Source: a virus. Taken from it: 64,000 bases of DNA. The translations under genes and the position numbers were made by a program. The notes beneath the pieces are model-generated. The model made no database searches, had not been told where the DNA came from, and saw only the letters and a program-made list of their open reading frames with translations. The DNA lies in the IMG/VR virus record IMGVR_UViG_3300042305_002088, positions 39,279 through 103,278 of that record. One strand, written 5' to 3'. Positions 16,172 to 64,000 of the stretch are shown in pieces; position 1 is the first letter of the stretch, and the number at the start of each line of letters is the position of its first letter.

Positions 16172-18376
16172 ATGGCTATTCAAAGACCGCAAAGAAGAAT
16201 TAATTCACCGGGTGTACAGATCGACGAAACTGATTTGTCCCAATATTTAAACCCAACACCAGGTACAACAGTATTTGTTGCTGGTTATGCCCCACAAGGC
16301 CCGGTAGATGAAGTATTAAGTATTACTTCAAATTCTGAGTTAGATCAAGTTTTCGGTCTTCCGCAGACACCTGCTGAGCGTTATTTTTATCACTCATGTA
16401 AGGAAATTTTAAATTCACCAGGTAACTTACTTGTTACTCGTCTACCATATGGTTCTGGTGGAGGTGAAGTTTTTGGCGGTTCATACGGAGCATTATTTTA
16501 CCCTGTTTTAAGCTCAGGTACAACAATAGGTACAGGAATCTCGGGTGTCGGTGCACTTTCAGCAACAGAGCTTTCAGCAACTACAATAACCGGTTATCAG
16601 ATTGGTCAACCAACACATCTTACATTAAATGACGATCAATACGACAATATTATTCAAGGTAACGTTACCTGGTCGTCTTTATCATCTACTCAACTAACAC
16701 CAAGTCTTTCTACAACTGGATCAGTATATAATATTAACAACACAGGTATTATTGTTCTCAACTCTTCTAAAACAACAATTAATGAAGCATTTGAAGGTTA
16801 TTACATAACATTTGCTGATAATACAAATTTTGGTCCTGATTCTGATTACAACGCAGTAACAAGTCTGTATAGTCTTACTGCAGCAAATGATTTTACACAA
16901 CTACCATCAACTCGTCTCGGTTTTGCATTATCAGCTGCTTCCGGTACTACAAGAGATTCAATCTCTGAAGTTATTGAGAAGACACCAACATACAATTTTG
17001 GTGATTCGTACTATAAAGATTCTCTGATCGTTAATATCTTTAAAATTCGTAATTCGATTTATGAGCCAGAAAATTTAACATACTCGTTAGCAGAAACCCA
17101 CATCGGTTCTTTTGATCCTAATAAACAAATCGTAGCCGATGGTGGCGGTACACCGAAAACGTTTTACTTAGAAAATATCGTTAACCGTGGTTCAAATAAT
17201 ATAAAGCTACTAATTAACCCAGCACTAACAGATAGAACTAATTGGGTATCCCTAAGTGCTAATACACCAGCAAGAGCTGTTACGATTAATTCAGCAGCAC
17301 GAGCCATATTCCCGGTAGGTTCATATTTACCAACATACGCTTATCAAAGAGGTAAAGATATCGGTAATGTAGTAACAAAACTACAGCGTGCTTTAACCCT
17401 AGTTGAATTACCTGAAACTATTAATATCGATGTACTCGTTGATGCAGGCCTTTCAACAATTCATGCAAATAGTATTACAACCAGTAACGGTGACAAGTAT
17501 TATGATGATAAAACCTTCCAAGTTACTACAAATCTTACCTCAAGTATTGAGTTATGGCAGTCAATTACAAATACATTTAATACATTTGTAACACTGACTC
17601 GTAAAGATTGTGTATTTATTTCTGATCCACTACGTCAAATATTTGTAAACGGTGAAGATACTAAAACACTCTCACTTAAAACTAAAAACTTTACAACAAA
17701 CGTTTACACACCTCTCAAAAACAGCTATGGGAGTATAAATTCAAATTACTTAGCAGCATATGCTAACTGGGTTAAGATATACGACTCAACAATTGATAAG
17801 CGCGTATGGGTACCTATTTCAGGTTTTGTAGGAGCTGTTTATGCTCGTTCTGATGCACAAACTCAACAGTGGTTTGCACCAGCTGGCCTAAATCGCGGTA
17901 TTATTGCTAACGCTCTTGATTTAGCTATCAACCCCAACCAAAAGCAAAGAGATAACCTTTACACAATTGCTCTTAACCCTGTTGTATTCTTCCCAGGAGA
18001 CGGTTATGTAGTATTCGGTCAAAAGACCTTACAAACAAAACCAACAGCATTTGACAGAGTAAATGTAAGACGTCTGTTCTTAGCTCTGGAAAAAGCAACT
18101 CTTAAAGCTCTTAAGTACTTCGTATTTGAACCTAACACTGAGTTTACACGCTCACGTCTCAAAGCAACCCTTACACCAATTTTTGAATTGGCTAAGAATA
18201 CAGAGGGTGTTTATGACTACCTCATTGTTTGCGACGAGCGTAACAATACATCAGATTCAATCGATCGTAATGAGTTACTAGTAGATATCTATATCAAGCC
18301 AGTTAAGGCTGCAGAGTTTATCTTAGTCAACTTCATTGCAACACGCACTGGTCAAAACTTTGAAGAATTGATCTAA
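16172..18376 (+). CDS. gp18: Contractile tail sheath protein (gp18)
   Basis: SPGVQIDETDLS, WFAPAGLNRG, FGQKTLQ, FDRVNVRRLF, VFEPN, IYIKP. Confidence 0.96.
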   Translation: MAIQRPQRRINSPGVQIDETDLSQYLNPTPGTTVFVAGYAPQGPVDEVLSITSNSELDQVFGLPQTPAERYFYHSCKEILNSPGNLLVTRLPYGSGGGEVFGGSYGALFYPVLSSGTTIGTGISGVGALSATELSATTITGYQIGQPTHLTLNDDQYDNIIQGNVTWSSLSSTQLTPSLSTTGSVYNINNTGIIVLNSSKTTINEAFEGYYITFADNTNFGPDSDYNAVTSLYSLTAANDFTQLPSTRLGFALSAASGTTRDSISEVIEKTPTYNFGDSYYKDSLIVNIFKIRNSIYEPENLTYSLAETHIGSFDPNKQIVADGGGTPKTFYLENIVNRGSNNIKLLINPALTDRTNWVSLSANTPARAVTINSAARAIFPVGSYLPTYAYQRGKDIGNVVTKLQRALTLVELPETINIDVLVDAGLSTIHANSITTSNGDKYYDDKTFQVTTNLTSSIELWQSITNTFNTFVTLTRKDCVFISDPLRQIFVNGEDTKTLSLKTKNFTTNVYTPLKNSYGSINSNYLAAYANWVKIYDSTIDKRVWVPISGFVGAVYARSDAQTQQWFAPAGLNRGIIANALDLAINPNQKQRDNLYTIALNPVVFFPGDGYVVFGQKTLQTKPTAFDRVNVRRLFLALEKATLKALKYFVFEPNTEFTRSRLKATLTPIFELAKNTEGVYDYLIVCDERNNTSDSIDRNELLVDIYIKPVKAAEFILVNFIATRTGQNFEELI

Positions 18377-18391
18377 TAAATATTTAAAATT

Positions 18392-18919
18392 ATGGCACAA
18401 AATATAGCAGACTTCTATAGAACAGTACAAGAAAGAGATTTTGCACGTCAATTTCAATTTCGTGTAATTCAGCTTGCAAATACTAACTTTAACGAAGATG
18501 AATTCGTTTATTTAGAAACTGCAAATCTACCAGGCAGAACAATTAATAATATTCAGGTACCTTTCATGGGCTTGAATTTCAATGTACCTGGTACAGCTTC
18601 ATACCCTGGTTCTGAGAGTTATGCCGTATCATTTAGGTGTGATCAGAATTATGACATTCGTTCTACTCTAGAAAACGCTACATTTAACACTTTTGATGAT
18701 CAAACATCAACCGGGGACTACAATATTGCAAGAAATTCTTCTGTTATCATCTTAAATCTTCTTGGCAAAGACTCAAGTGTTATTAGACAATATACCCTAT
18801 ATGGAGCTTATGTAGTATCAGTAGGAGATATTGCTTACAATCTAGGAGATAACGGAGCTATCGTAACCGTTCCTTCTACTCTAGCCTATCAGTACTGGAG
18901 AGTTACTGCTGCCTCCTAA
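18392..18919 (+). CDS. gp19: Tail tube protein (gp19)
   Basis: TANLPG...VPFMG...PG and C-terminal LAYQYW, directly after the sheath gene. Confidence 0.88.
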   Translation: MAQNIADFYRTVQERDFARQFQFRVIQLANTNFNEDEFVYLETANLPGRTINNIQVPFMGLNFNVPGTASYPGSESYAVSFRCDQNYDIRSTLENATFNTFDDQTSTGDYNIARNSSVIILNLLGKDSSVIRQYTLYGAYVVSVGDIAYNLGDNGAIVTVPSTLAYQYWRVTAAS

Positions 18920-63042: not shown

Positions 63043-63108
63043 GGTCATCCTTCATACCTCACAAATAAGGTCGAAAATATTCTTTTTATAAAGGAGAAAA
63101 AAATAACT

Positions 63109-64000
63109 ATGGAACTTCTACATATCGATAAATCGAGAGCCGAAGCTTTAGTTGAGAAGTGGACTCCAGTATTGGATTACTCTTCTGACAAAGTTAAGGC
63201 TATTTCAGACGAACATACACGCTTAAACACTGCTATCCTTCTTGAGAACCAAGAAAAGTGGTGCTTTGAGGCCAGTAACATTGCTGGCGGTGGATCAGCT
63301 GGTACAGGATCCGTCTTCGGTACAAACGCACCCGGCTCTTTCGGTGGCGCAGTACCTAACCGTGATTCTTACGCAGCTGGTGACGCACGTCTGCCTAAAG
63401 TCCTCATCCCAATGATTCGCCGTACATTCCCCGAGCTCATCACAAATGAGATCGTAGGTGTACAGCCTATGACTGGTCCTGTTGGCTTGGCATTCGCAAT
63501 GCGCTACAAGTATGAAGGTTCAGCACTTGGTACATCAAGTAACGGCTCTGACGGTAACTCTACCGGCTTAGCCGCTAACTCAATCTACAACCAAGCAAAC
63601 GTAACAGGCAAAGAAATCGGTTATAACTACCTGAATACATCCTTCACAGGTGTATCCAGTGCAGCTCTTTCCGGTAACTCAGCCTTCGCGGTTGTTGGTG
63701 AAGATTCAGGTGTTGCAGCCCTTCTCTCACAGTTTGAATTAACTTCAAACATCCCACAAGTAACTGTATCGTTTGAAAAGACCGCAGTTGAAGCCGGCAC
63801 ACGCCGTCTCGCAGCTAAGTGGTCCGTTGAACTCGAACAAGATTTAAGAAACATGAACGGTATCGACATCGATGCTGAATTAACAAATGCTATGTCATAT
63901 GAAATTCAAGCTGAGATCGACCGTGAAATGATTGCTCGTATGATCCAAACATGCTTGAATGCTGGCGCTGGCGTTGGCTATTCAACATGGTCAGCTATCT
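63109..64000 (+). CDS. gp23: Major capsid protein (gp23), 3'-truncated by window edge
   Basis: Not in the ORF track because there is no stop. MELLHIDK..EKWTPVL..TAILLENQ..LIPMIRRTFPELITNEIVGVQPMTGPVGLAFAMRYKY..KTAVEAGTRRLAAKWSVELEQDL..EIQAEIDRE. Confidence 0.97.
   Translation, partial: MELLHIDKSRAEALVEKWTPVLDYSSDKVKAISDEHTRLNTAILLENQEKWCFEASNIAGGGSAGTGSVFGTNAPGSFGGAVPNRDSYAAGDARLPKVLIPMIRRTFPELITNEIVGVQPMTGPVGLAFAMRYKYEGSALGTSSNGSDGNSTGLAANSIYNQANVTGKEIGYNYLNTSFTGVSSAALSGNSAFAVVGEDSGVAALLSQFELTSNIPQVTVSFEKTAVEAGTRRLAAKWSVELEQDLRNMNGIDIDAELTNAMSYEIQAEIDREMIARMIQTCLNAGAGVGYSTWSAI

Follow-up and report, generated by a model that had tools for sequence, protein, structure and literature searches.

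Bacteroidota have a general O-glycosylation system in which a lipid-linked glycan is used outside the cytoplasm and the acceptor is defined by the sequon D-(S/T)-(A/I/L/V/M/T). Flagellins are O-glycosylated in the cytoplasm by Maf, GmaR and related enzymes, which are soluble and act on Ser or Thr residues in exposed central domains without a strict sequon. The chloroviruses and mimiviruses possess their own host-independent cytoplasmic glycan pathway for particle proteins, made up of multiple enzymes that include methyltransferases and nucleotide-sugar enzymes. For phages, glycosylation of the virion has to our knowledge been demonstrated so far only in actinobacteriophages, and we know of no sequon for it. 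Among these, mycobacteriophages encode the glycosyltransferases that glycosylate their virions (Freeman et al. 2023, Cell Host Microbe, as cited in PMC12619734). Here, we describe a window of 64,000 nucleotides of viral DNA (positions 39,279 to 103,278 of the IMG/VR record IMGVR_UViG_3300042305_002088), in which the tripeptide L-S-[A/G/S] is strongly over-represented in virion proteins. Selection appears to maintain a high density of this motif in virion proteins that face outward, in a clade of uncultured aquatic T4-like phages. The motif may be the acceptor site for phage-encoded O-glycosylation of serine, a tentative reading to which we give somewhat less than an even chance.

The window makes up the final 64 kb of a viral contig of 103,278 bp (G000), and its gene content and gene order are those of a T4-like myovirus. 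The non-structural genes include those for a DNA polymerase, a clamp loader, a dUTPase and a ribonucleotide reductase as well as a 7-deazaguanine cluster; the structural genes encode sheath, tube, baseplate hub, gp25- and gp6-like wedge proteins, fibre, neck proteins, prohead protease, scaffold and major capsid protein. An earlier reading, made from the letters of the window and here called the sequence-only reading, had counted six L-S-[A/G/S] sites in the tail sheath (734 amino acids (aa), 16172..18376), nine in a 1356-aa baseplate or fibre protein with an N-terminal PKD domain (34909..38979), ten in a 1692-aa virion protein without family match (38985..44063), five in a 552-aa tail fibre protein (45608..47266) and seven in a 905-aa protein with weak NHL and SGL propeller matches (51087..53804), all on the + strand as are the other virion genes below. 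These counts were reproduced exactly, as was the fraction of 37 out of 63 LS pairs that are followed by A, G or S in these five proteins. The background fraction of these residues being 0.195, the binomial p is 8e-12; in the enzymes, A, G or S follows LS in 12 of 95 cases, with a background fraction of 0.165. When the residues of each protein are shuffled, 7.4 sites are expected in the five big proteins against 37 observed (z 11.5), and in the structural half as a whole 19.0 +/- 4.1 sites are expected against 56 observed (z 9.1). The non-structural half has 12 sites with 14.1 expected. The enrichment thus stays in the structural and not in the non-structural proteins, and the claim that an abundance of serine is not its cause is borne out: the excess survives not only whole-protein shuffles but also shuffles within windows of 10, 20 or 40 residues, which preserve the local composition (z still 8-11). 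An unbiased scan of all 8000 tripeptides places LSG, ALS and LSS at ranks 1-3 in the structural set, none of which is notable in the non-structural set, and this answers the objection that the motif was picked after inspection. The Leu codons (CTN and TTR) and Ser codons (TCN and AGY) of the motif are drawn from all codon families. The signal therefore resides at the protein level, and a motif at the DNA level is ruled out.

The comparison set consisted of fifteen related IMG/VR records and, as outgroups, three cultured phages (T4, HTVC008M and P-HM1). A megablast search against cultured phages gave no near-identical DNA and no close cultured relative. Over the whole proteome, G000 has 68 sites with 33 expected, and its close relatives have 98/44, 94/37, 106/42, 62/26 and 81/39; a more distant lineage, G011 (IMGVR_UViG_3300028569_002586), the sheath of which is 41% identical, has 137/61. 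Seven clade genomes (G000, G001, G002, G004, G005, G011 and G014) thus show an excess of 2.0-2.5x, and in each of them LSA, LSS or LSG is among the top tripeptides of the unbiased scan. The proteomes of the outgroups are at expectation (T4 52/54, HTVC008M 54/47, P-HM1 71/67), and even their large beta-rich structural proteins reach only 0.8-1.4x, which rules out a generic trait of T4-like structural proteins. The large Ser/Thr-rich proteins of HTVC008M show an excess of another tripeptide, [S/T]-[G/A]-S, with 56 occurrences against 31.6 expected.

The same picture emerges when orthologues are counted in the relatives only, with G000 left out and at identities of 29-48%. The sheath orthologues contain 33 sites against 10.6 expected, those of the 1356-aa protein 29 against 7.0, those of the 1692-aa protein 59 against 11.8 (p 1e-22) and those of the 905-aa protein 43 against 9.3 (p 1e-15). 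Terminase orthologues have 1 site against 3.6, and replication proteins are at or below expectation. Taken together, the non-structural orthologues carry 52 sites against 73 expected (p about 0.007), a depletion that is only suggestive.

The positions of the sites are far less stable than their density. In alignments of four large families, each with four or five genomes at 29-51% identity, 152 sites are distributed over 115 columns, of which 92 are occupied in a single genome. Opposite a motif, 15% of the aligned tripeptides of the other genomes are relaxed variants (background 1%), and 85% fall outside even this relaxed class. The density is therefore kept while the positions change. The 1380-aa protein of G011 (36033-40175 of its contig, in the virion module) was excluded as evidence, since it consists of leucine-rich repeats and its 30 sites stem from the repeat consensus. 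In the same genome, TPT is the top tripeptide (117 against 17), and five proteins with 11-35 copies of T-P-T, encoded at 30963-36036 and 148199-153652, have Thr/Pro-rich, mucin-like linkers and adjoin proteins rich in LS[AGS].

The requirements of the motif were derived from 46 large Ser/Thr-rich proteins pooled from five clade genomes. At the third position, the excess is 4.9x for L-S-A, 3.8x for L-S-G, 3.3x for L-S-S and 1.4x for L-S-T, with every other residue at about 1.0. Replacement of Leu by Met, Ile or Val leaves 1.4-3.4x, and replacement of Ser by Thr (L-T-[AG]) about 2x. Such a graded matrix seems to resemble the preference of an enzyme. In the three outgroup phages, L-S-[AGS] attains 1.1-1.4x. 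The order of the residues matters as well, L-S-small reaching 3.7x against 1.3-2.2x for the five other permutations. Outside the tripeptide little is conserved: the flanks hold at most 0.18 bit, with Ala, Val and Ser mildly favoured before Leu, Thr, Ile and Val after the motif, and Asp and Lys disfavoured. The distances between sites have no period and do not differ from those of randomly placed sites. A repeated domain or a solenoid rung as the source of the motif is ruled out by these weak flanks and the aperiodic spacing. The proteins that bear the motif come from unrelated families (sheath insertion, PKD, ConA-like lectin, propeller-like, fibre, neck and capsid insertion), in agreement with the earlier claim that non-homologous proteins share the motif, which is a short linear motif rather than a domain signature.

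Among other sequence signals measured in the clade, neither the Bacteroidota sequon (0.83x in the large virion proteins) nor the N-glycosylation sequon N-x-S/T (1.04x) is enriched, and the same holds for D/E-x-N-x-S/T, [S/T]-[G/A]-S (1.2x), DGY (0.8x) and GSP (0.9x). A second tripeptide excess, W-T-G, is present in the large virion proteins of the clade, for example those encoded at 34909-53804 of the window. It is about 3.4-4x over-represented (17-20 sites) and unexplained. Literature searches gave no report of an L-S-[A/G/S] motif.

Within the virion, carriers and non-carriers can be distinguished. The six sites of the sheath are at residues 113, 129, 134, 170, 253 and 361, all in the variable insertion part, as the sequence-only reading had stated; matches of this protein to the sheaths of cyanophages, pelagiphages and others are confined to the C-terminal core (28-44% identity). 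In an AlphaFold model of the sheath, with a predicted local distance difference test score (pLDDT) of 79, the six sites are spread over one strand, three loops or irregular stretches and a low-confidence insert that is unique to G000. Between the larger carriers lie a 512-aa PKD-domain protein (44060..45598; 1 site, orthologues 8 against 3.8), a 308-aa virion protein (47662..48588; 2 sites, orthologues 11 against 2.9) and an 824-aa protein with a ConA-like lectin domain (48590..51064; 3 sites), whose orthologues have 13 sites against 4.2, all in lineage-specific columns. Two short fibre-like proteins of 183 and 175 aa (53825..54907) have 1 and 2 sites, and the neck proteins, one head closure Hc2-like and one head-tail adaptor Ad2-like (57177..58764), have 1 site each. 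The contexts quoted for these small proteins were all found, namely ALSSDVYALSSD and LLSAT in the short fibres and GLSAG and TLSSH in the neck proteins. The major capsid protein, truncated where the contig ends (63109..63999), bears 1 site, AALSG (63667-63675), and this does lie in an insertion after AMRYKYE, which is clade-specific. The site is kept in G004, G014 and G011, and it reads ALTG in G001. The motif is absent from the named interior proteins, that is, the tube, the scaffold, the gp25-like and the gp6-like protein. The tail tube (175 aa, 18392..18919) has no site and its relatives have 0 against 2.0 expected; the gp6-like baseplate wedge protein (633 aa, 33002..34903), which had already been described as free of the motif, has 0 sites, with 2 against 3.1 expected in its relatives.

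Some neighbouring genes and relatives show features of their own. At the start of the source contig (G000 472-2406), a 644-aa protein has 3 sites against 1.1 expected; it has no family match and no homologue in the fetched relatives, and it may belong to the virion proteins as well, should the genome be circularly permuted. An HNH/homing-endonuclease-like open reading frame (ORF) on the - strand (59469-60257 of the window) is situated between the head-closure gene and the gene of a 293-aa protein with three hydrophobic segments. The DNA polymerase ORF of G001 (80407-84969) encodes 1520 aa against 848 aa in G000, possibly by the presence of an intein or another insertion. A jumbo phage in the comparison set, G012 (IMGVR_UViG_3300032295_003763, 199,927 bp), contains about 330 each of the triplets G-N-Q, G-T-Q and G-V-Q, suggesting very long collagen-like Gly-X-Y proteins.

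A candidate writer of the modification had been seen by the sequence-only reading in a glycosyltransferase ORF at 2..847 of the window (+ strand). The identification stands, with a PHROG glycosyltransferase match, but the ORF is not a whole enzyme: it is the C-terminal 281 aa of a 419-aa GT4-like protein, the gene of which spans G000 38866-40125 and directly follows gp46. The ESM Atlas places the 419-aa protein in viral clusters named 'Glycosyl transferases group 1', and its AF2 model (pLDDT 87) has a GT-B fold, with the GT4 members BshA, MshA, SenB, PglA, WaaG and GtfC/Gtf3 as the nearest structures in Foldseek. No sequence match was obtained in Pfam, NCBIfam or PDB, and the only match among cultured phages is a transferase of Streptomyces phage Zuko (24% identity). 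The gene is present in all eight clade records that cover the region and also in G013-G015, at 43-90% identity, and it is absent from T4, HTVC008M and P-HM1.

This gene is not alone. On the contig, 15.3 to 2.2 kb upstream of the start of the window (G000 23996-37032), a 13-kb island of 16 sugar-pathway genes parts gp47 (Metallophos) from gp46 (AAA_23/SMC_N). Its products include, according to Pfam, two GT2-like, two GT25, a GT10 and a GT47 protein, DUF6492, DUF7796 and three methyltransferases; it also encodes a Polysacc_synt_2 4,6-dehydratase (PseB/FlaA1-like) and two nucleotidyltransferases, one of them fused to a HAD phosphatase. The GT2-like and DUF6492-like proteins retrieve little or nothing from Pfam, NCBIfam and PDB. 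Of the eight clade records in which this region is covered, seven (G000, G001, G002, G006, G007, G009 and G010) have an island of 6-13 kb at the same spot. Its first four genes form a conserved core, consisting of two paralogous GT2-like genes, the DUF6492-like gene and a 285-aa gene, and the remainder varies from record to record; in G011, the conserved GT2-like gene is located in another part of the contig. In T4, HTVC008M and P-HM1, the gap between gp47 and gp46 is 0.3-0.7 kb and the transferases are absent. None of the 17 island proteins checked for hydrophobic stretches, nor the 419-aa enzyme, has a membrane-like segment, and the acceptor is therefore expected to be cytoplasmic. Co-variation of the motif with glycosyltransferases in the relatives, a check suggested by the sequence-only reading, was found only in part. 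The two do co-occur, the 13-kb island included, and among the clade records that cover the region none has the motif without a glycosyltransferase; the pairing is confounded by phylogeny. For this pairing, G013 and G015 are uninformative: they have transferases, but their contigs are without the fibre region.

The motif is favoured as the recognition site of a modifying enzyme because it is context-free and aperiodic, turns over, occurs in many folds and is silent in the outgroups. O-glycosylation seems to be the most economical form of this reading, because the clade has a specific, soluble, multi-enzyme glycan pathway. A soluble phage-encoded glycosyltransferase would O-glycosylate the serine of the motif in the cytoplasm, before or during assembly, and the variable transferases, methyltransferases and nucleotide-sugar enzymes of the island would go on to extend the glycan. 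The outcome would be a lineage-specific sugar coat over sheath, baseplate periphery, fibres, neck and capsid. A more elaborate scenario, possible but rather doubtful, assigns the reading of L-S-(A/G/S) in the cytoplasm to a conserved transferase and the building of lineage-specific glycans to the hypervariable island, with sequons rapidly gained and lost at a kept density in the manner of a glycan shield.

Such a system would share elements with each of the known ones. With the Bacteroidota sequon it has in common three residues with a central hydroxyl residue, a small or methyl-bearing residue next to it and occurrence in many unrelated proteins; it differs in having Leu in place of Asp, in the lack of enrichment of the Bacteroidota sequon itself in the clade and in island proteins without the membrane segments of a flippase or membrane transferase. 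The soluble enzymes and the PseB/FlaA1-like dehydratase are reminiscent of flagellin glycosylation, and the location of all sheath sites in a variable insertion (residues 113-361) and of the capsid site in the insertion region would be a further likeness if these parts are exposed at the surface. In contrast to that system, no Maf-type transferase (PF01973) was found in G000, G001, G002, G011 and G014, all incomplete records, and the rest of the nonulosonic-acid pathway was not found. The multi-enzyme pathways of chloroviruses and mimiviruses differ in belonging to eukaryotic giant viruses and in their N-linked or fibril glycans and other sequons. The mycobacteriophage system is the closest documented counterpart. 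As far as it is described in PMC12619734, the likeness consists of soluble phage-encoded glycosyltransferases and a cytoplasmic decoration of virion proteins, which in G000 is conjectural and in the mycobacteriophages demonstrated. According to the same source, the mycobacteriophage glycans are at the C-termini of capsid and tail-tube subunits, whereas in G000 the tube is without the motif and a tripeptide defines the sites, which are scattered over internal positions. The hosts, the type of phage (a T4-like myovirus in G000) and the location of the genes (the island between gp47 and gp46) are different as well.

Other explanations for the motif can be put forward. Its excess might be an artefact of stretches rich in L, S, A and G, or of a motif chosen post hoc, and the mild increase of the other residue orders does point to some local clustering of composition. 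This explanation was tested and rejected and is hardly credible, as the excess remains at z 8-10 in shuffles within 10-residue windows, comes first in the scan of all tripeptides and replicates in independent genomes at new positions. A more serious alternative holds that the motif is unmodified and has a role in structure or folding, either as a local element (a strand end or a tight packing site) of beta-rich, clade-specific folds or as a site for an assembly chaperone. The carriers are indeed beta-rich fibrous or sandwich proteins, the flanks weakly alternate V, T and I and are depleted of D and K, a few sites are conserved in position (sheath residue 253 and column 186 of the 1692-aa family), and the leucine-rich-repeat protein of G011 demonstrates that a repeat consensus alone can supply 30 sites. 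We nevertheless consider a structural role unlikely: there is neither an extended context nor a periodicity, most sites turn over between orthologues with the density kept, the secondary-structure contexts vary within the sheath alone and the motif spans unrelated folds, while the large beta-rich proteins of the three outgroups show next to no excess.

It could also be that the motif does serve as a recognition site, though of an enzyme other than the transferases of the island. The serine would then undergo another modification (phosphorylation, acylation, addition of a phospho-sugar or ADP-ribose, or dehydration followed by cross-linking) or would be modified by a host enzyme, and the island would serve another end, for instance the hypermodification of DNA with glycans or the remodelling of host glycans. 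The position of the island and the GT4-like gene among replication genes, by the polymerase and the 7-deazaguanine cluster, would fit such a role, and phages are documented to have transferases that attach glycans to DNA (Pyle et al. 2024, cited in PMC12619734). Furthermore, beside the GT4-like gene of G001 lies a 67-aa frame (86296-86493) that corresponds to the C-terminal quarter of a thymidylate synthase, either a remnant or part of an intron-split gene. An intact gene of the thymidylate-synthase (hydroxymethylase) family is, however, absent from ten clade records (G000, G002, G004, G006, G007 and G011-G015; about 1.1 Mb), all of them incomplete (21-74% complete). The alpha- and beta-glucosyltransferases of T4 are not among the top Foldseek matches listed for the 419-aa enzyme, which is the sole transferase that was folded. 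As for host glycans, the island holds no membrane components of the kind needed for envelope glycans. On balance, this explanation appears improbable to us.

The glycosylation reading itself has to be held against a number of observations that weaken it. Every clade member has both the motif and the sugar genes and every outgroup has neither, a pattern that phylogeny alone could explain, and no clade member was found to have lost either trait. The island and the 419-aa gene sit in the replication and recombination module and not beside the structural genes, and the GT4 fold neighbours of the 419-aa enzyme act mostly on small molecules or lipids. The jumbo phage G012, which has GT2-like homologues (36% identity) and no GT4-like gene, is not enriched in general (83 against 70). 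This agrees mildly with the view that the GT4-like gene or the core as a whole is what matters, without being decisive. The site at sheath residue 253 is kept in 40 of 49 relatives and column 186 of the 1692-aa family has the motif in five of five genomes, so that both may be structural, and the alternation in the flanks is, faintly, that of a beta strand. The apparent avoidance of the motif in interior virion proteins (6 sites against 23.6 expected) relies on a grouping that was partly set after the counts had been seen. It weakens to about 6 against 11 when only proteins named as interior by PHROG are taken, and in a composition-based split of the proteins there is no depletion. Finally, the source contig is incomplete, with an estimated completeness of about 49%.

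If L-S-[A/G/S] is indeed an acceptor site for O-glycosylation, glycosylated virion surfaces would become predictable across metagenomes from sequence alone, and the large glycosyltransferase islands of many aquatic phages would be accounted for. It would also open a route to study how phages mask or tune their surface in the face of host defences, grazers and aggregation, and glycoengineering would gain new soluble Ser-glycosyltransferases that are directed by a sequon. Should no sugar be involved, a clade-specific tripeptide that turns over fast and is present at a fourfold excess in surface proteins would still constitute an unexplained selective signal in this group of phages.

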